DNA of 60,849 nucleotides from a virus (taxonomy: Duplodnaviria > Caudoviricetes): the IMG/VR virus record IMGVR_UViG_3300007734_000735, positions 1 through 60,849 of that record; one strand, given 5' to 3'. The notes beneath the pieces are model-generated. The model had not been told where the DNA came from. It made no database searches and saw only the letters and a program-made list of their open reading frames with translations. A program made the translations under genes and the position numbers. Below are positions 1,735-59,773 of the stretch, piece after piece (the first letter of the stretch is position 1; each line of letters begins with the position of its first letter).

Positions 1735-1849
1735 TTAGGATTGCATAGCCAACGATATTTTTAGCAACACCATCAACAAGAATCCAAGCAACAAACATTC
1801 CAAGCATTGTCCATATCTGTCCAATGATGTCATTCAAAAAGTTTTTCAA
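1682..1849 (-). CDS. 55 aa two-TM membrane protein (not in ORF track)
   Basis: AGGAG RBS, TTG overlapping stop of 1846..4128; MKNFLNDIIGQIWTMLGMFVAWILVDG...YPLRRSKD. Confidence 0.65.
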   Translation of the reverse strand: MKNFLNDIIGQIWTMLGMFVAWILVDGVAKNIVGYAILITFGVWVLTYPLRRSKD

Positions 1850-4128
1850 TTTGGTCTCCTATATCCAATACCACCGATAGCAGTAGCAATTGTAGTCGTA
1901 GCGATATTGCCAACGATTGTCGCGGCAATAACTGTTTTACTTGCTTCTTCGCGTTCTTCAGGAGACATGTCTGCTCCAAGGTTTCCAATAGCGAAGAGCA
2001 ATTGTGCGGGGCTTTCAAAGATGGCTGAAACAATATCTGTCACCGAGGTGAGCAGTTCTAAAGCGACAGCGACTTCGGCTGTAATAACAACCTCATTGCC
2101 ATTCTCATCTTGGCGAACTTCAACAGGTTGCTCGGCAGGTAAATCCTTTAGCGTGATTCCCGCTTCGGCGATTGATTCAACAGTTACGGCTTCACCGTTT
2201 GCTGATTCAATAAGCACATCTGCAACAAACTCTCTCTCAGCGGAAGTAAACTTTCCATCAGATGCAAGAGTCTCTGAAAGATTATTGACCTCGGCTTGAG
2301 TTATCTTGCCATCAGCCTTAAGGACAGAGACGACAAGATTTTGCTCGGCTGTGTTAAGGGAACCACTCTCGCTCAAAGTCTCAATCAAGGCTGTTGCCTC
2401 GGCTTGAGTTACTTTGCCATCTTCCATCAATGAATCAACTACCGCTTCAACATCAGCGGGTGTAATCTTTCCATCTTGAGTAATGTCATTTACTAATTCG
2501 GAGGTTTCAGATGATTCTGTGGACGGACTTTCTTGCTCTTGGTTTACTGGGGCTGGTTCTAGTGGGTTTTCGGCTGGTGGCTCCTCCGCAGGGGCTTCCT
2601 CCGAAGGTGGCTCGATTGGTTCGGGCGTTAGAGGTTCTACTGGTTCTTCTACTGGTGGTAATGGTTCTAATGGTGCGGGGTCAATAGGTGGTAGTGGTTC
2701 GGGTGTGGGACTTGTCGGGTCAATTTCCGCTGGGGGTGCAACGGGTTCAGGTGCAGGTTCTTCAACGGGCGGAGCAGTTGGCTCAGGCTCGGGGAGCGGT
2801 ACAGGTTCAGGGGCAGGTTCGATTGGCGTTACAGGATTTGGATTTGGCTCAGGTTGAGGAATCGGATTCGGTGTGGGTTCAGGAACAGGAACGGGCTGTG
2901 GTTGAGGCAAAGGGATGGGTTGAGGCTGTGGCACGGGAGTCGGCTCTACCGCTGGGGTATCGACTGGATTCGGAAGAGGGGTTGGTACGGGATTTGGTAC
3001 AGGTGACGGAATTGGAGTTGGGGTAGGTGATGGCTCTTGGGTTGGCTGTGGCGTTGGCGCTATTGGCGCTGTTGTACTGGTATCAGGTGAAGGAGTAGGC
3101 GATGGGACAGGTGTGGGTTCAGGTGTGGACGGCGCAGGTGTTGGGGTCGGTTGAGGTTGAGCAGTCGGAGTTACAGAAGGTTGCGGGCTTGGAGTCGGTG
3201 AAGGCGATGGTTCCGATGTTGGTTGAGGTGAAGGACTCGGTTGAGGTTGAGGCTCTGAGGTCGGCGCTGGTGTGGGAGAAGGTGAAGGTGCAACAGTTGG
3301 AGTCGGTGTTGCACTCGCAGACGGTGACGGCGAAGGAGAAGGTTCAGATGTCGGAGATGGAGAAGGAGTTGGCTCTATCGAAGGGCTGGGGCTGGGTGCT
3401 GGGGTCGGCTCAACAATCGCCTGAGCAGTTACAACAGGAGCAACATAAACTCGAGTAAGACCCGCTTCTGCCAAAGTAACTACACGACCATCAGGTAAGC
3501 GAACGCCTGTTCGAGTATTCAATCCCGCTTGAACATCTGAAAGATAAGTAATTGTTAAAGTGCTGTCAGGATTTATTGATGCAGTAACAACAATTGTTGA
3601 TAGAGGATTGGCTGAAGCATTTTGTCCATAAGGACGAACGGCTAAATCAACTTGGAATCCCGCTTGGCTTGAACTAATAATCAAATGCTCATCAGGCGCT
3701 CTCCATCCAACAGGATAAGAATTTGATGGATTTGGATTATTAGGATTTAGAACTACCCAGTCATAAGCATTGACGGAAATTGAAGGCGTATTGGGATAAT
3801 TGCTGAAATTATTATCCATCTGACCAAAAACAATTGTTGAGTTTGTAGTTGCATAGACAGCGTTGTAAGTAGTGCCTTGAAAATTCACCGCTGTTGGCAA
3901 TGCCACTTGGTAAGAGACATCATCGCCTCCGCAGGTATCTTGGACGATTACTGGGGTTGAGGTCGTGGGCGCAGTTCCCGATTCTGAAGGCGCCAAGACA
4001 GTTGCCGCGCTAGAGGCTGTAGCCACGGATTGAGCCGTAGTCACGCATGAGGCTGAGGCTGAGTCGGTAGGTAAAACTGTCCACCAAAAGATGAGTAGGC
4101 AGACCGTGATTATGCGGAAAAAGCGCAA
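1846..4128 (-). CDS. Exported/surface protein: signal peptide, beta-rich domain, long Pro-Ser/Thr/Glu linker, DGK(I/V/F)T repeats, C-terminal hydrophobic segment
   Basis: 760 aa ORF composition. Confidence 0.75.
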   Translation of the reverse strand: MRFFRIITVCLLIFWWTVLPTDSASASCVTTAQSVATASSAATVLAPSESGTAPTTSTPVIVQDTCGGDDVSYQVALPTAVNFQGTTYNAVYATTNSTIVFGQMDNNFSNYPNTPSISVNAYDWVVLNPNNPNPSNSYPVGWRAPDEHLIISSSQAGFQVDLAVRPYGQNASANPLSTIVVTASINPDSTLTITYLSDVQAGLNTRTGVRLPDGRVVTLAEAGLTRVYVAPVVTAQAIVEPTPAPSPSPSIEPTPSPSPTSEPSPSPSPSASATPTPTVAPSPSPTPAPTSEPQPQPSPSPQPTSEPSPSPTPSPQPSVTPTAQPQPTPTPAPSTPEPTPVPSPTPSPDTSTTAPIAPTPQPTQEPSPTPTPIPSPVPNPVPTPLPNPVDTPAVEPTPVPQPQPIPLPQPQPVPVPEPTPNPIPQPEPNPNPVTPIEPAPEPVPLPEPEPTAPPVEEPAPEPVAPPAEIDPTSPTPEPLPPIDPAPLEPLPPVEEPVEPLTPEPIEPPSEEAPAEEPPAENPLEPAPVNQEQESPSTESSETSELVNDITQDGKITPADVEAVVDSLMEDGKVTQAEATALIETLSESGSLNTAEQNLVVSVLKADGKITQAEVNNLSETLASDGKFTSAEREFVADVLIESANGEAVTVESIAEAGITLKDLPAEQPVEVRQDENGNEVVITAEVAVALELLTSVTDIVSAIFESPAQLLFAIGNLGADMSPEEREEASKTVIAATIVGNIATTTIATAIGGIGYRRPN

Positions 4129-14794: not shown

Positions 14795-15660
14795 TGCTTA
14801 CTCCAGTCCAGTCTCAGCGCTATGCCCAATTGGTAAACAACTTTAAGGAAAAAGAATTCTATGCTTACCATGAGCATCTTCTCGCGGGCGGGAGAGTTGA
14901 AGATTTCTTTGACAAGATGGAAAAGCACGGTACCCATGACCAAAAGACACATGGTTCATGGGCTGATAGTAATTCTTATGATGAGGTCGAGGCAAAGAAT
15001 GAAATCCTTATGGATGAATGGCGAAAAAAATATGGGATATTGAGTGAGTATTTAGAATCCAAAGGCTTGACCCGCTCATGGAATGAAATTCAAGCCGACC
15101 CCAAAGCAAAAAAGATGCAAGAGGCAGTTGATGCAATTTGGAAAAAAATGCAAACAAATCAGAATAAATTTTATGATGAACATTTTGAAAAGAATGAAAC
15201 TGAGGATTTTGATAGGTTAAGAGATAAATATGTTGTTGCCGACACGCCAACTTTGAAAATGAACAAGCAATTGCGTGAGGGTGGGGGACTTACCCAAAGA
15301 GTTAAAGATGCTGACGCCTTGTGTGCCATGGGGGTCGTTAAAGAACGAGTTGGTGTTTACAGGGGAGCATTTCTTCCAAAAGAACTAATCGATACAATTA
15401 AAGTTGGAACTTCATTTACCGATAAAGGTTTTCAGTCTACCGATGTAGATAAATCTTCTGCTCAGTTTTATGCAAGAAGTAGAAAAGAAGGTGGGGCGCA
15501 GGGAGAACTTGTTTTATTCCGTTATACATTAGAAAAGGGATTAAACGCCATTGATGTTAGTTATGGAGAGGTTGTAGTTCAACGAAATGCAACGATAACT
15601 GTAACTAAAAAAACTAAAAGTGGCGAATATACAATTATTGATGCGACGGTGAATAAATGA
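14791..15660 (+). CDS. Tagged VIP2-like ADP-ribosyltransferase
   Basis: Tag at 14923; MNKQLR, VYRG, DKGFQSTD, GEVVVQR. Confidence 0.75.
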   Translation: MMLTPVQSQRYAQLVNNFKEKEFYAYHEHLLAGGRVEDFFDKMEKHGTHDQKTHGSWADSNSYDEVEAKNEILMDEWRKKYGILSEYLESKGLTRSWNEIQADPKAKKMQEAVDAIWKKMQTNQNKFYDEHFEKNETEDFDRLRDKYVVADTPTLKMNKQLREGGGLTQRVKDADALCAMGVVKERVGVYRGAFLPKELIDTIKVGTSFTDKGFQSTDVDKSSAQFYARSRKEGGAQGELVLFRYTLEKGLNAIDVSYGEVVVQRNATITVTKKTKSGEYTIIDATVNK

Positions 15661-16397
15661 ATAAAGAATTACGCGTCACAATGGATGTTGAAGATTTCCT
15701 TTCAATGTTTTCACAAGTTGATTCTTTTGAGAAGCATCAAGAACATGACCAGCAAACTCACGGCAATTGGGCTTCAGGTAATTATGAGAATCTTGCCGAT
15801 TGGTTTAAAGATGAAGTAAAAGTCTTTGCGTCCGAGACAGATAAAGAAGTTTATTTCATGACTAAACTATTTAGCCAACGCCTCAAAGGTTTCACAGAAA
15901 TGGCTTATCCTGAGTTCTCGGGAGCAATAAATAATTATGAAAGTCGTCTTGGTTATGACATGAATGAGGCTTTGCGTGACCCTCAAATAAGTGAAGATGG
16001 CTATAAATCAACTATTGATTTACTTGATAAGGCGATAGAGACCGCTCCTGCATTGAGTGAAGAGTTGGTTGCTTACCGAGGAGTTAAAGGCAACGGATTA
16101 AAGTTTTTTGAAAATCTTAAAGTTGGAGATACTTACCAAGACAAAGGCTACACATCGACAACAATTGATGCTGGAGTTGCTCAACAATTTGGCGGACAAC
16201 AACCGTATTATGACGGTTTAGTTTTCCGTATGAAGTTACCCGCTGGTACAAAAGGAATCTTTCCTGCGGGCTATCACGAACCTGTAAACGGTTGGACACC
16301 ATCTACGACTGAGGCTGAGTTCTTATTACCGAGAGATAGTAAATTTACTATTGTTGCCCAGCGTGGCAAGGTTTGGGATGTAGAGTACAAACCATGA
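15657..16397 (+). CDS. Tagged VIP2-like ADP-ribosyltransferase (ExE motif)
   Basis: Tag at 15732; MNEALR, AYRGV, DKGYTSTT, EAEFLLPR. Confidence 0.85.
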   Translation: MNKELRVTMDVEDFLSMFSQVDSFEKHQEHDQQTHGNWASGNYENLADWFKDEVKVFASETDKEVYFMTKLFSQRLKGFTEMAYPEFSGAINNYESRLGYDMNEALRDPQISEDGYKSTIDLLDKAIETAPALSEELVAYRGVKGNGLKFFENLKVGDTYQDKGYTSTTIDAGVAQQFGGQQPYYDGLVFRMKLPAGTKGIFPAGYHEPVNGWTPSTTEAEFLLPRDSKFTIVAQRGKVWDVEYKP

Positions 16398-48856: not shown

Positions 48857-49059
48857 ACACAGAATTCTTTTGGACAGCAGTTGCACTTGCTTTTGCAGGT
48901 TTAATTATTCTGCCGTTTTATCTAGCGATGCTCATTGCCTACGATAAATCAAAATCAAAAACAACATTAGAGTTTTTGGCAACAGCCAATCACATTGAAA
49001 AGAAAGTTAAATTCGATGAAGCAGTCGAACGCCTGTTCGAAGAGGGAGTAACAGAATGA
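48853..49059 (+). CDS. Small membrane protein
   Basis: N-terminal TM; ATGA overlaps. Confidence 0.65.
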   Translation: MNTEFFWTAVALAFAGLIILPFYLAMLIAYDKSKSKTTLEFLATANHIEKKVKFDEAVERLFEEGVTE

Positions 49060-49355
49060 CAACAGTAATGGAAGCAACGGAGTTAGACGGTAAGGGTCTT
49101 GACGAGGTAAAGATTTTGACTGATGCTATTCGTACTCATCAATCACAAATTCAAGATTTAGGTAAACGACGCAAGCAGTTGATTTTGCGCCTTCGTAAAC
49201 AGCGCATCACATATCGTGAGATTGCTGAAGCCATGGGAGTATCAGAGCAGTTGATTTACAAAATCATCCGCAATGACATTTCGAGAGAGCCTGAGTTCGA
49301 TTCTCAAGGCAATCTTGTTCGCAGACGAGGACGCCCAGCGAAACCAACTTTGTAA
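49056..49355 (+). CDS. HTH DNA-binding protein with AT-hook-like RRGRP
   Basis: TYREIAEAMGVSEQLIYKI. Confidence 0.75.
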   Translation: MTTVMEATELDGKGLDEVKILTDAIRTHQSQIQDLGKRRKQLILRLRKQRITYREIAEAMGVSEQLIYKIIRNDISREPEFDSQGNLVRRRGRPAKPTL

Positions 49356-50446
49356 TGAAGTTTATTGAACTTTTTGCTGGTATCGGAGCCTTTCGCCTAG
49401 GACTTGAGAACACAGGTCATGAGTGCGTGTGGGCTAACGAATGGTTAGAGAGACCGAGGAAAATCTATGCCCGAAATTTCGGAGAACAACCCGACGGAAG
49501 AGACATTCGAACTATTTCCGTTGGAGACATTCCAAACGCAGACCTCCTTGTTGGAGGATTTCCTTGTGCCACTTTTAGCATTGCAGGTAAACGAACGGGA
49601 TTCTCTTTGGAGGACACAAGAGGCACTCTTGCTTTTGAAATGTTTCGACTCGCTCGGGATAAAGGAATACCGTACCTTCTCTTTGAAAATGTCAAAGGAC
49701 TCCTCAACCACGACGGAGGAAGAACCTTCGGAATCATCTTGGAAGTCTTGGATGGGATGGGGTATGACTGTCAATGGGAGTTGCTTGACAGCCAAAATTT
49801 TGGAGTCCCACAGCATCGAGAAAGGGTTTTCCTTATCGGACATCTTAGAGGAGAACCCCGACCAAAAGTATTTCCTATCGGAATCACAGGTAGAGAGAAT
49901 GATGAGCCGTACCAAGGCAAACAAGGAAGAAGGCAGGGGCTTTTCTCCGACATTTCTCCAACGCTCGATGCCCATTATTACAAAGGGGGAGCATCTCGAC
50001 CTTATGTAATGGATGATGTACCTGAGTTCGAAGTGGCTCAATGGCGTCGGGGTTATTTCCGCCCATATAAGTCACAGGGAGTTCCGACTCTTACAGCCAA
50101 TATGGGTACAGGCGGACACAATGTTCCTTTTGTAAAACCTATTATGGATGTTGCCCGATTCAACAAGAGTCCAAACGGGCGCATGATTAAAGATGATAAC
50201 GACCCGATGTACACAGTTACCGCTCAAGATAGGCACGGAGTTGTTATTGGAGATGAAGAATCAGTTTCAATAAGAAAACTCACACCGCTTGAGTGTGAAA
50301 GATTGCAAGGTTTCCCCGATGGATGGACAGAGTTCTACGACGACGGAAAGAAGGTTTCAGATGCCGAACGATATGAGCGGTGCGGACGAACAATCAGCAT
50401 CCCAGTTGTGGAAGCGATTGGAAGAAAACTTCATGAGTTCTACTGA
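49355..50446 (+). CDS. C5 cytosine DNA methyltransferase family (possible carboxymethyltransferase)
   Basis: FAGIG, GFPC, ENV, QHRER, LTPLECERLQGFP; motif X reads CGRT instead of GNS. Confidence 0.9.
   Translation: MKFIELFAGIGAFRLGLENTGHECVWANEWLERPRKIYARNFGEQPDGRDIRTISVGDIPNADLLVGGFPCATFSIAGKRTGFSLEDTRGTLAFEMFRLARDKGIPYLLFENVKGLLNHDGGRTFGIILEVLDGMGYDCQWELLDSQNFGVPQHRERVFLIGHLRGEPRPKVFPIGITGRENDEPYQGKQGRRQGLFSDISPTLDAHYYKGGASRPYVMDDVPEFEVAQWRRGYFRPYKSQGVPTLTANMGTGGHNVPFVKPIMDVARFNKSPNGRMIKDDNDPMYTVTAQDRHGVVIGDEESVSIRKLTPLECERLQGFPDGWTEFYDDGKKVSDAERYERCGRTISIPVVEAIGRKLHEFY
49467..50009 (+). CDS. Nested alternative-frame ORF, probable MTase beta-type subunit
   Basis: 180 aa open +1 frame with SLSDILEENPDQKYFLS; GAGGA upstream. 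Confidence 0.6.
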   Translation: MPEISENNPTEETFELFPLETFQTQTSLLEDFLVPLLALQVNERDSLWRTQEALLLLKCFDSLGIKEYRTFSLKMSKDSSTTTEEEPSESSWKSWMGWGMTVNGSCLTAKILESHSIEKGFSLSDILEENPDQKYFLSESQVERMMSRTKANKEEGRGFSPTFLQRSMPIITKGEHLDLM

Positions 50447-51083
50447 AGCATTTTCTTTTGACACGATAGACAACTTTGATGACCACATTGCTAAGTCAAT
50501 ACCCAACTACCATTTATTAGCAGATGCTATTCGTGACCTATCAACTTTCTTTGCTAAAAAGGATTACACGGTTGTTGATTTAGGATGCTCGACAGGCGCA
50601 CTTCTTGAAAGCATACCTTTCACGGGTGAGAAACTAGGCATTGATATATCAAGCAATCTTTTACCTGAGAGCCACGACAATGTTCAATTCGTTTGCAAGG
50701 ACTTACGCTCATTTCGCAATCTTGGTAACACCCCATCCCTAGTTCTTTCAATCTTCACATTGCAGTTCCTCCCATTGGAGGACAGACAAAATATCTTAGA
50801 TTTGGTTTATGAAGAGTTAGCCGAAGGTGGCGCTTTTATATGGGCAGAGAAATGTTATGAAGAGGACGGAGATATGGAGCATATTTTTAATTTTGCATAT
50901 TATGACTTCAAGGGTAAGCATTTTAGTTCAGACGAGATAATGAGCAAAGAACGAGATTTACGCCCATTGATGAAAACTAAGACAGCCGAGCAAAATCTTG
51001 CTATGGCAGTTGAAGCAGGTTTTGAGAAAGGCGCTTGTTTTTGGAAGTTCTTTAATTTTGAAGCATGGTTGTTTATTAAATGA
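50433..51083 (+). CDS. cmoA: CmoA-like carboxy-SAM synthase
   Basis: FDDHIAKSIPNY, VDLGCSTG, FTLQFL..DR, GG.FI.AEK, FFNF. Confidence 0.75.
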   Translation: MSSTEAFSFDTIDNFDDHIAKSIPNYHLLADAIRDLSTFFAKKDYTVVDLGCSTGALLESIPFTGEKLGIDISSNLLPESHDNVQFVCKDLRSFRNLGNTPSLVLSIFTLQFLPLEDRQNILDLVYEELAEGGAFIWAEKCYEEDGDMEHIFNFAYYDFKGKHFSSDEIMSKERDLRPLMKTKTAEQNLAMAVEAGFEKGACFWKFFNFEAWLFIK

Positions 51084-52267
51084 AAGCCAACATTAAGGTA
51101 GGACAAGTTGCGTCAGTTCCAATTAACTCGCTTGAGGCTTACCCAACCAATCCGCGCCGTGGAGACATCGATGCAATTGCACAATCCCTTAAAGCGCACG
51201 GGCAATACCGCCCTATCGTCGTCCAGTATGGTACGAATTTTATCCTTGCTGGCAATCACACCTACAAAGCGGCGAAGAAACTTGGCTGGAAGAAAATTAA
51301 GATTACTTATATTGAAGTTGATGAGACGACAGCCCGAAGAATAGTTCTAGCCGATAACCGCTTGACCGACCTTGCAGGATATAACGAGCCACTTCTGAAG
51401 AGTTTGCTTCAAGCCTTGCCTGAGTTGGATGGCACAGGTTTTAGCGCCTCTGAAGTTGAGACCCTTGACAGATTGACTAGCGGTGAGGATAAATCCAACA
51501 TAGGGGGCAATAGGAACCTTCCAAGTGAACCTGAAGTAAAGATAGGGGCATGGAAGTTTATAGTTGAGAGCGAGGCTTACAAGGCTTGGAAAGAGCAGTT
51601 ATACAGCGAGGCACCGACAAAACAAAAAGCCATCAAACTTATCAAGGAGCGCCTTGGCTTTCCTGAGCGCAAACCAGTTGAGCCTGAGCCAAAAGGAGAG
51701 AAGAGCGATACCAGCATTGAGGATGTTGAAACAGTTGGCATCAATAAGATAAAGATTCACCCTATGAACCCGCGTGAGGGCGATATAGGCTCGATTATTG
51801 AGTCCCTGACACACATGGGTCAATACCGACCTATCGTGGTAAATAAACGGACACAGCACATAGTTTCGGGAAATCACACATATCAAGGGGCAGTTCAATT
51901 AGGATGGGAAAAAATTGCGGTTCATTGGATTGATGTCGATGAGATTGAGGAAATTAAAATCCTTATCGTTGATAACCGAACCAGCGACCTTGCAACCTAC
52001 GACCCACAGGAGTTGAACAAACTTCTCACGACAACAAACCTTAGAGGCACGGGTTTTAGCCCTGAAGAAGTGGCTGAGATTCTCGCGGGGGGAAAATCCA
52101 AGCCAGGGCATATTCCTGTGGGTCGCTCTACAATTCGAGTTGGCGAACACTCAATGAGAGTTCATACTGAAGATTTGAATGAATGGGCTAACGCTATCTA
52201 TAACTGGAAAGACATCGCGCAGTTACTCGGGCTACCACTTGAAGCATGTTCGATAGAGGTAGAATAA
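51080..52267 (+). CDS. Tandem double ParB/Srx-like domain protein
   Basis: Two copies of P.NPR.GDI..I..SL...GQYRPIVV...GNHTY..A..LGW..DNR. Confidence 0.8.
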   Translation: MKANIKVGQVASVPINSLEAYPTNPRRGDIDAIAQSLKAHGQYRPIVVQYGTNFILAGNHTYKAAKKLGWKKIKITYIEVDETTARRIVLADNRLTDLAGYNEPLLKSLLQALPELDGTGFSASEVETLDRLTSGEDKSNIGGNRNLPSEPEVKIGAWKFIVESEAYKAWKEQLYSEAPTKQKAIKLIKERLGFPERKPVEPEPKGEKSDTSIEDVETVGINKIKIHPMNPREGDIGSIIESLTHMGQYRPIVVNKRTQHIVSGNHTYQGAVQLGWEKIAVHWIDVDEIEEIKILIVDNRTSDLATYDPQELNKLLTTTNLRGTGFSPEEVAEILAGGKSKPGHIPVGRSTIRVGEHSMRVHTEDLNEWANAIYNWKDIAQLLGLPLEACSIEVE

Positions 52268-58679: not shown

Positions 58680-59606
58680 CTACAAGTCGGGAATAACAAC
58701 CTCGGTTTGAACCGCCGTAAGTGCAAGCATGGCGTTGCGCCATACCTCGGGAGTTCCCGTGTCAGGCAAGTAACCGCCCGCTCCACCTAGAAGGATGGGC
58801 ATGTCATGGAACTGCTCTCTAACGGCTCGGAGTGACCTCCAATAGCCCGCTGGTGTGTAAGCAAGTTCGCTCAATGGGTCATCTTTGAGACCATCTGCCC
58901 CACATGCTACAAAAATCATCGTAGGCTCGAATTCAGCGCAAGCCTCAAAGAAAGATTCAGTCGCAGTCATTAAATCTGCATCATCTGAATCACGGGTCAG
59001 CGGAAAGTTATAGGCACGGTTTTTGTAATCCGAGATTAAACCTGTTCCTGGAAAAATTCCGTATTGGTGAACAGAAAATGTCATGACATTTTTGTTAGCC
59101 TTGAGCAACATCTCAGTACCGTCGCCATGGTGTGCATCAATATCAAAGATTGCTACGCGCTCGCCTAGTTCAGTTGCCTTTGTCGCGGCGATAGCGAAAT
59201 CTGCAAAGATACAAAACCCGCTGGAGTAATCGCGCATGGCGTGATGCTTTGCACCTGCCAAGTTGATAGCAAGCAAAGTTTTCTTATCAAGCAAAACATC
59301 TAGGGCTGTCAATGTCCCGCCAACAAATAACTTTGCTAGTTCGCCGAGGTCATGACGCTGACCATCCCATTCATCTGATTCACCTTTGATAGTGACATCA
59401 TGAACATAGATAGGGTCATGCACCAAGAGAAGGTCATCGGTATGTGGCATCTCAGGATGGATTTCATCTACATTGAGACGACGCTTCTGAGCCTCCAACA
59501 TAATCTGATTACGCCCATGCAGAAATCGTCGCCCCTGTGTAGGGTGCGACTTATCGAAAATCCAGTTCGCATATTCGGGCGAATGAACAAGAATTGCGTG
59601 TTCCAT
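58680..59606 (-). CDS. Zn-dependent histone deacetylase-family (AcuC-like) enzyme
   Basis: GAKHHA, SGFC, DIDAHHGDGT, SVHQ..FPGTG, GAD...DPL, GGY. Confidence 0.9.
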   Translation of the reverse strand: MEHAILVHSPEYANWIFDKSHPTQGRRFLHGRNQIMLEAQKRRLNVDEIHPEMPHTDDLLLVHDPIYVHDVTIKGESDEWDGQRHDLGELAKLFVGGTLTALDVLLDKKTLLAINLAGAKHHAMRDYSSGFCIFADFAIAATKATELGERVAIFDIDAHHGDGTEMLLKANKNVMTFSVHQYGIFPGTGLISDYKNRAYNFPLTRDSDDADLMTATESFFEACAEFEPTMIFVACGADGLKDDPLSELAYTPAGYWRSLRAVREQFHDMPILLGGAGGYLPDTGTPEVWRNAMLALTAVQTEVVIPDL

Positions 59607-59773
59607 CAATCTTCATACCTCTCTTTGAGTGGATAAAGATAACCGCCCATTGCGACATCTGCACCAGTTTTAATAACAACATCATCGGCTGAGAGTTCGA
59701 CCTTTGCATCAGGGAAAAACTGCACAATCCATTTTTGTAAATCTTCTTTTGTTTCTACTTCAGCAATGTCCAT
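59606..59773 (-). CDS. Small hypothetical protein
   Basis: GAGAGGA RBS; TGATG coupling to deacetylase. Confidence 0.6.
   Translation of the reverse strand: MDIAEVETKEDLQKWIVQFFPDAKVELSADDVVIKTGADVAMGGYLYPLKERYED

Follow-up and report, generated by a model that had tools for sequence, protein, structure and literature searches.

The locus at 49355-51083 of the virus record IMGVR_UViG_3300007734_000735 (Duplodnaviria; Caudoviricetes), analysed within the window formed by the whole record of 60,849 nucleotides, raises the question of what a DNA cytosine-C5 methyltransferase homolog makes when it carries Arg in place of the motif-X Asn and is encoded next to a homolog of CmoA, the synthase of carboxy-S-adenosylmethionine (Cx-SAM). 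By analogy with a characterised phage system, the two genes very probably form a cassette that places a carboxymethyl group on phage DNA cytosine, giving 5-carboxymethylcytosine (5cxmC). Literature searches turned up a single account of natural 5cxmC, that of Yang et al. (Nat Commun, December 2025, PMC12783734). It describes a natural CmoA-CmoX pathway in Synechococcus phage S-B43, in which SpCmoA is reported to produce Cx-SAM from S-adenosylmethionine (SAM) and prephenate, SpCmoX to form 5cxmC at GC sites with Cx-SAM as the sole accepted cofactor, and CmoY to ligate glycine onto 5cxmC. In the crystal structure of SpCmoX (8YF3), Arg350, replacing Asn304 of HhaI, touches the carboxymethyl group, and the R350N mutant is described as inactive (PMC12783734). 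The pathway itself is already known, as the sequence-only reading of this DNA had suspected in warning that a similar one might be in print, and what is new here is a separate enzyme lineage. The biochemical background on which that reading drew is also found in the literature, where CmoA is described as carrying Cx-SAM (PMC3663124) and Asn-to-Lys engineering at motif X as conferring Cx-SAM use on M.MpeI and M.MedI (PMC12015181). The features on which the argument turns are the following:

49355-50446, plus strand: candidate CmoX-like DNA cytosine-C5 carboxymethyltransferase of 363 residues with an HhaI-like GFPC backbone (PF00145, TIGR00675).
49445-49447, plus strand: codon of Leu31 in motif II (NEW-L), a position held by Asp in relatives with Asn at motif X (Asn-type).
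49565-49570, plus strand: codons of Cys71-Ala72, the catalytic Cys followed by Ala and not by the Gln of PCQ.
50375-50389, plus strand: motif X codons of E341 R342 C343 G344 R345 (YERCGRT), with R345 in place of HhaI Asn304 and SpCmoX Arg350.
50433-51083, plus strand: candidate CmoA-like carboxy-SAM synthase of 216 residues (TIGR00740, phrog_4752, SpCmoA, solved structures).
50961-50963, plus strand: codon of CmoA Arg177, a candidate carboxylate-binding Arg four residues past the Arg199 equivalent and invariant in 72/72 family members.

The methylase homolog matches PF00145 over residues 1-359 (1e-70; 239 bits against a cut-off of 22) and TIGR00675 (dcm) with 263.8 bits, above the cut-off of 100.65. 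The catalytic motifs of a C5-methyltransferase are present as FAGIG (residues 7-11), P70-C71, ENV (E111-N112-V113) and QHRER (Q153, R155 and R157 of QxRxR), presumably motifs I, IV, VI and VIII, respectively, and their residues are invariant or nearly so in the family alignment. The usual Gly-Asn of motif X and Pro-Cys-Gln of motif IV are not kept, the protein having G344-R345 and C71-A72; in the Asn-type relatives, GN is present in 97/97 and PCQ in 95/97. The codons at 50372-50389 (tat gag cgg tgc gga cga) read Y340 E341 R342 C343 G344 R345, which bears out the Arg codon that the sequence-only reading had placed at 50387, and the residue is indeed the equivalent of the motif-X Asn, as R345 pairs with N304 in the FGNSVV of M.HhaI in the HMMER alignment. 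R345 also pairs with R350 of SpCmoX (ERCGRTI and ERVGRMV) in both MAFFT and BLASTP alignments. As GGFPCATFS and YER[CM]GRT are kept in 120/120 of the close homologs listed (at least 64% identity), Arg345 is no chance variant. Among solved enzymes, M.HhaI (1.9e-45, residues 1-162) is a stronger match than SpCmoX 8YF3 (4.9e-11), and a Foldseek search with the predicted structure, which has a confident catalytic core and a mean predicted local distance difference test score (pLDDT) of 72.6, ranks HhaI first (6.5e-23, template modelling score 0.58) and 8YF3 nineteenth (3.9e-15). The viral database search in PMC12783734 gave 5,615 candidates with SPPC and R350, often beside CmoA, a ligase or a ParBc protein. 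Since the methylase has G68 F69 P70 C71 at the SPPC position of SpCmoX (S95 P96 P97 C98), that published filter would exclude it.

The next gene was predicted to be CmoA-like and overlapping, and it is both. Although its open reading frame (ORF) is listed from TTG 50289, translation probably begins at ATG 50433, which has GGAAG ahead of it and gives an overlap of 14 nt with the methylase, whose stop lies at 50444-50446. The protein matches TIGR00740 (3.2e-29) and phrog_4752 (5.7e-69), its closest solved structures are H. influenzae YecO 1IM8 (8.6e-21) and E. coli CmoA 4GEK (3e-19), and it is 36% identical to SpCmoA (1e-39), which has been assayed. The cofactor contacts of E. coli CmoA, given as Tyr39, Asp62, Gly64, Ser66, Asp89, Asp117, Phe137 and Glu164 (Byrne et al., PMC3663124), are kept as Y26, D49, G51, S53, D71, D90, F112 and E139, each in 72/72 family members; E. 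coli Asn90, Asn132 and Ala70 are retained neither in the CmoA homolog nor in SpCmoA. The identities of the two genes and the equivalences of their key residues are in this way observed directly.

In the proposed mechanism, the CmoA homolog would convert SAM and host prephenate to Cx-SAM, and the methylase homolog would flip out the target cytosine, with Cys71 attacking C6 and the carboxymethyl group of Cx-SAM being moved to C5 to leave 5cxmC in phage DNA. Arg345 would hold the carboxylate of the cofactor, as Arg350 of SpCmoX does, in a pocket reshaped by Ala72 (for the Gln of PCQ), Leu31 (for Asp) and Glu341/Arg342, and the likely benefit would be protection against host restriction. Cofactor use, product and biological role are thus proposed by analogy with SpCmoX and SpCmoA.

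The association of the Arg-type methylases with CmoA is strict. In the close-relative set of 80 IMG/VR loci, CmoA lies directly downstream in 80/80, complete in 67/67 of those where at least 700 bp follow the methylase and partial in the 13/13 that reach a contig end. A wider set, with three more distant Arg-type queries added and duplicates removed, comprises 114 unique full-length methylase ORFs from 228 viral loci, and here CmoA is found within flanks of ~4 kb in 86/86 Arg-type enzymes (85 GFPC, 1 SPPC) versus 0/28 of the Asn-type. The partner CmoA proteins are 26-89% identical to the one described here and some lie 805 bp distant, which indicates that the linkage outlasts deep divergence and partner exchange. 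Together with the alignment of R345 and the CmoA neighbour, this co-occurrence supports in silico the natural carboxymethylation that had been suggested, the formation of 5cxmC being put forward by analogy. The linkage of SPPC Arg-type enzymes to CmoA is looser than that of the GFPC type: in the SPPC Arg-type IMG/VR loci (L200-L214, L244), CmoA lies within ~4 kb in 10/16 and is absent in 6 (L202-L206, L213), whose phages may keep cmoA elsewhere or use host Cx-SAM. A further arrangement is found in an SPbeta-like Staphylococcus phage (L084:3968-5667), where cmoA adjoins a C5-methyltransferase homolog annotated hhaIM with GSPCQSFT and VVGGVIN at motif X; with neither Asn nor Arg at motif X, it adds a third type to the methylases associated with CmoA. 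The long Arg-type enzymes P0121 (552 residues) and P0123 (443 residues) were examined for a fusion of CmoX to CmoA, and none was found, their extra length lying in the target-recognition domains.

A second line of evidence comes from residues that change along with Arg345. In a comparison of 19 GFPC Arg-type with 97 GFPC Asn-type enzymes, extended to 5 SPPC Arg-type and 3 SPPC Asn-type enzymes, nine positions cleanly separate GFPC Arg-types from Asn-types, and five of these are shifted likewise in the SPPC Arg-types, with the ancestral residue retained by most SPPC Asn-types:

Position 31, motif II: Asp in GFPC Asn-types (85/97), Leu in GFPC Arg-types (18/19), Ile or Val in SPPC Arg-types (5/5), and Asp, Asp and Trp in SPPC Asn-types.
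Position 72, motif IV: Gln in GFPC Asn-types (95/97), Ala in GFPC Arg-types (19/19), Ser, Lys or Ala in SPPC Arg-types, and Gln in SPPC Asn-types.
Position 341, motif X: Lys in GFPC Asn-types, Glu in GFPC Arg-types and SPPC Arg-types, and Lys, Lys and Leu in SPPC Asn-types.
Position 342, motif X: variable in GFPC Asn-types, Arg in GFPC Arg-types and SPPC Arg-types, and Glu, Glu and Met in SPPC Asn-types.
Position 345, motif X: Asn in GFPC Asn-types, Arg in GFPC Arg-types and SPPC Arg-types, and Asn in SPPC Asn-types.

The GFPC Arg-types alone also carry two inserted residues after motif IV. The co-variation is also plain across 150 representatives (clusters at 50% identity), in which the PC-A enzymes have ER.GR (10 representatives), those with PC-Q or PC-P have K..GN, and the two patterns were never seen mixed. 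Of the in-silico arguments for adaptation of the two lineages to one cofactor, the parallel at five positions is the strongest, and positions 31, 72, 341 and 342 may have the structural roles in the pocket proposed above.

Trees bear on where the signature came from. Relatives of SpCmoX were gathered from cultured phages for a tree, including Asn-, Met- and Leu-types of the SPPC lineage. The Arg-types are those of S-B43, S-CRM01, PaBG, Mcat8 and TurkishDelight, which have Ser, Ala or Lys after SPPC; the Asn-types with PCQ are those of YongM, A-1(L) and FNU2; the Met-types are those of LoVEphage, tooticki, BMBtp14 and phi18:3; and the Leu-type is that of Melnitz-2. The enzymes of Bacteroides LoVEphage, Flavobacterium tooticki6-1, Bacillus BMBtp14, Cellulophaga phi18:3 (L093-L096) and Melnitz-2 (L091) follow the catalytic Cys with a small residue (PCS or PCP) and have Met (GMSVPP) or Leu at the motif-X Asn position, and none of these five phages is among the 70 phage records that matched CmoA. 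A first tree, built from GFPC Asn-types and the SPPC Arg-types only, was discarded, as three groups make an Arg-type branch trivial. A tree of 45 enzymes has the GFPC Arg clade (SH-like approximate likelihood ratio test, SH-aLRT, 99) nested among the GFPC Asn-types and the SPPC Arg clade elsewhere, so that the Arg state needs two changes. The enzyme is probably a distinct HhaI-like variant that acquired its carboxy-SAM signature independently of the SPPC-type CmoX, to judge from the sequences. More broadly, the balance leans towards carboxymethyltransferases having arisen at least twice, with a GFPC-A lineage outside the SPPC-defined CmoX set that shows the same five changes, is abundant in actinophage-like viruses and has bare 5cxmC as its final base.

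The alternative that fares best keeps the pathway and gives the Arg-type signature a single origin shared with SpCmoX, whether inherited or passed between lineages as a segment, and it is unlikely. The common ER.GR string is striking, and recombination between the lineages does occur, as seen in P0265 (loci L200 and L215). This chimera, either natural or made in assembly, combines the two carboxymethyltransferase lineages: residues 1-170 (GFPCATFS) are 79% identical to the GFPC Arg-type P0126, and residues 171-314 (TERLGRAVPP) match the SPPC Arg-type of L200 at 79% identity. A single Arg-type clade is nevertheless rejected by the approximately unbiased test, both with P0265 included (log-likelihood difference 142, p 1.9e-5) and without P0265 and a long-branch outlier (difference 179, p 5.6e-9), in keeping with the position of the well-supported GFPC Arg clade among Asn-types. 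Residues 1-165 of the methylase are 44-62% identical to GFPC Asn-types versus 27-32% to SPPC Arg-types, and residues 301-363 are 39-54% identical to GFPC Asn-types versus 29-58% to SPPC Arg-types over 19-55 aligned residues. As both ends of the protein are thus nearest the GFPC Asn-types, a C-terminus swapped in from an SPPC CmoX is rejected, and the signature residues are moreover spread over both halves of the protein. Independent acquisition in the GFPC lineage remains the preferred account.

With regard to the end product, searches of the complete 60.8-kb genome for Asn-synthase PF00733, SpCmoY and the amidotransferase-ligase of TurkishDelight gave 0 matches, with the PF00733 search matching in 14/14 known genomes used as control, and tblastn found an SpCmoY-like gene in 0/80 related loci. 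Since no ligase is found in the genome or in these loci, 5cxmC is likely the final base and, with no amide ligase encoded, would be the probable end product. That 5cxmC is merely an intermediate, converted by an unrecognised phage or host enzyme such as an amide ligase unrelated to CmoY, is doubtful, and somewhat more so than a single origin. It draws on S-B43, whose virion DNA is described as holding the glycine amide and not 5cxmC (PMC12783734), on the 2,251 ligases reported among 5,615 CmoX contigs (PMC12783734), and on the ORFs of this genome, about half of which have no assigned function. The searches above speak against it, as do the conserved backbone genes that flank the cassette with no third cargo gene. 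That the enzyme is an ordinary SAM-dependent methylase making 5-methylcytosine (5mC), with CmoA in a separate role (support of tRNA modification, or SAM draining as counter-defence), is very improbable, for although the enzyme retains catalytic motifs I, IV, VI and VIII, wild-type M.MedI (Asn) is reported to use both cofactors weakly (PMC12015181) and PMC12783734 considers that phage CmoA might deplete SAM, CmoA is strictly linked to the Arg-type and absent from Asn-type relatives, five pocket residues are shifted in parallel across two lineages, SpCmoX with the same Arg is reported to take Cx-SAM only (PMC12783734), and general family scans of the genome's ORFs show no CmoB homolog.

Several points weigh against carboxymethylation by this cassette or limit its reach. 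The cofactor and the product are assigned wholly by analogy with an enzyme that is 28-34% identical, and the 86/86 do not count as separate events, since the GFPC Arg-type enzymes belong to a single clade. The CmoA homolog scores 102.3 bits, below the TIGR00740 equivalog cut-off of 193.3, and the position of Arg199, which salt-bridges the carboxylate in E. coli CmoA (PMC3663124), is occupied by Glu173. E. coli CmoA has Glu at the position of Arg177, the biochemically active SpCmoA shares the swapped arrangement (E188/R192), and the CmoA proteins of PaBG and Yoloswag retain the arrangement of E. coli Arg199; judging from these alignments, the carboxylate-binding Arg may be shifted by one helical turn, with Arg177 as the proposed substitute. 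The fold of the target-recognition domain (178-296) is predicted with pLDDT below 50, the domain aligns with none of the solved enzymes against which it was searched, and for these reasons no target motif is proposed. Within the Arg clade, these domains are 29-79% identical to that of the present enzyme and the proteins reach 552 residues, so the target sequences probably differ. An unrecognised enzyme could also modify 5cxmC further. Finally, a search over genome contigs for the host returned a single, uninformative match (a 2.2-kb contig of a metagenome-assembled genome), which gives no view of the prephenate supply or of the restriction systems faced.

The virus that carries the cassette is an actinophage-like siphovirus of ~61 kb related to Arthrobacter phages. 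The 60,849-bp IMG/VR record is rated 100% complete by CheckV and encodes portal, capsid, tail, tape-measure, endolysin, Erf and RusA proteins and the small and large terminase subunits. The likeness of the large terminase to its Arthrobacter phage counterparts (53-56% identity) and a weak WhiB-like match (phrog_472, 1.9e-8) point to a possible actinobacterial host. Upstream of the terminase, the methylase and CmoA homologs form the middle of a four-gene run, from a helix-turn-helix (HTH) gene to a ParB-like gene, with stop-to-start overlaps of 1, 14 and 4 nt. The outer two genes are:

49056-49355, plus strand: small HTH protein (HTH_23, 1.2e-8), whose stop codon shares 1 nt with the start of the methylase (TAATG).
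51080-52267, plus strand: ParB-like protein with two ParB_N domains (PF02195 in 2 stretches; phrog_8071, 1.3e-180), overlapping the CmoA stop by 4 nt.

The HTH gene precedes the methylase in most related loci, and a tRNA-Cys of 98 nt with anticodon ACA called by ARAGORN at 49219-49316 on the plus strand lies inside this conserved ORF and is a probable false positive. The ParB-like gene is a full-length ortholog (38%) of gp2 of Arthrobacter phage Laroye, and no PF00145 or C5-methyltransferase gene was found in Arthrobacter phages Laroye and Ottawa. Membership of the ParB-like gene in the pathway is unsupported, as its ortholog exists where the methyltransferase is absent. Because Laroye and Ottawa carry ParB-like genes without a C5-methyltransferase, the ParB-like gene is probably part of the lineage backbone and outside the pathway, with cmoX-cmoA as an inserted cassette. 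Laroye (L101, 88-14877) and Ottawa (L102) have three genes with ParB-like domains before the terminase, together with a phosphoadenosine phosphosulfate (PAPS) reductase in Laroye and an oxidoreductase in Ottawa, which suggests that the spot before the terminase is a variable region for DNA-modification or packaging-associated cargo in these relatives.

Elsewhere in the window, a 309-residue amidohydrolase of the histone-deacetylase family (PF00850, 1.1e-55) is encoded at 58680-59609 on the minus strand, within a minus-strand block of uncharacterised genes. At 15657-16397 on the plus strand, a gene in the head-morphogenesis block encodes a domain like the ADP-ribosyltransferase exoenzymes (PF03496, 4.1e-16). 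A 760-residue ORF without a family match lies at 1846-4128 on the minus strand, with a signal-peptide-like N-terminus, a linker of ~300 residues rich in Pro, Thr, Ser and Glu, and a hydrophobic C-terminal end; it explains a local rise in G+C (0.50) and GC skew.

If the reading holds, the five-residue signature would represent a solution at which nature arrived twice for converting a C5-methyltransferase from SAM to Cx-SAM use, and the five parallel pocket positions would offer a testable minimal determinant set for that switch on the HhaI-like scaffold, the best studied among methylases. Such a cofactor-switch signature bears on the engineered carboxymethyltransferases for direct 5mC sequencing, and a natural chimera such as P0265 would suggest that halves of the two lineages are exchangeable. 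As the published family definition by SPPC and R350 would miss a large and well-conserved second lineage, the family is probably wider than published and the spread of natural 5cxmC is likely underestimated. A system free of a ligase would also be a natural source of unamidated 5cxmC, allowing the biology of DNA with the bare base to be studied.

Compared with known systems, the cassette shares with that of S-B43 a CmoA beside a C5-methyltransferase homolog with a motif-X Arg in an ER.GR string, a small residue after the catalytic Cys, a ParB-domain gene nearby and, by analogy, the predicted product 5cxmC and a predicted anti-restriction role. Of the features that delimit CmoX in PMC12783734, the enzyme has the R350-equivalent Arg and the neighbouring CmoA and lacks the SPPC motif and a place in the SpCmoX clade. 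It differs from SpCmoX in having GFPC-A in place of SPPC and in belonging to a different C5-methyltransferase lineage, and from the S-B43 system in its gene order, with cmoX followed by an overlapping cmoA, in having no CmoY ligase, and in being carried by a siphovirus, S-B43 being a T4-like cyanophage. With M.HhaI, the C5-methyltransferase for GCGC (PDB 1MHT) and the closest solved structure by both sequence and fold, it shares GFPC, ENV and QxRxR; M.HhaI has PCQ and FGN (Asn304) and uses SAM, whereas the present enzyme has PCA, CGR and the insertion after motif IV, and its target-recognition domain does not align to that of M.HhaI. The CmoA homolog belongs to the same fold family as E. coli CmoA and H. 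influenzae YecO (4GEK, 4IWN, 1IM8) and keeps the SAM contacts including Glu164 (Glu139 here), and it differs from the E. coli enzyme in the change of Arg199 to Glu, in the invariant Arg four residues on (as in SpCmoA), in having no CmoB partner and in its shorter N-terminus. The engineered M.MpeI N374K and M.MedI N377K likewise replace the motif-X Asn with a positive charge for the carboxylate of Cx-SAM (PMC12015181); these are described as single or double laboratory Lys mutants that still use SAM, whereas the natural enzyme combines Arg with four co-varying changes.

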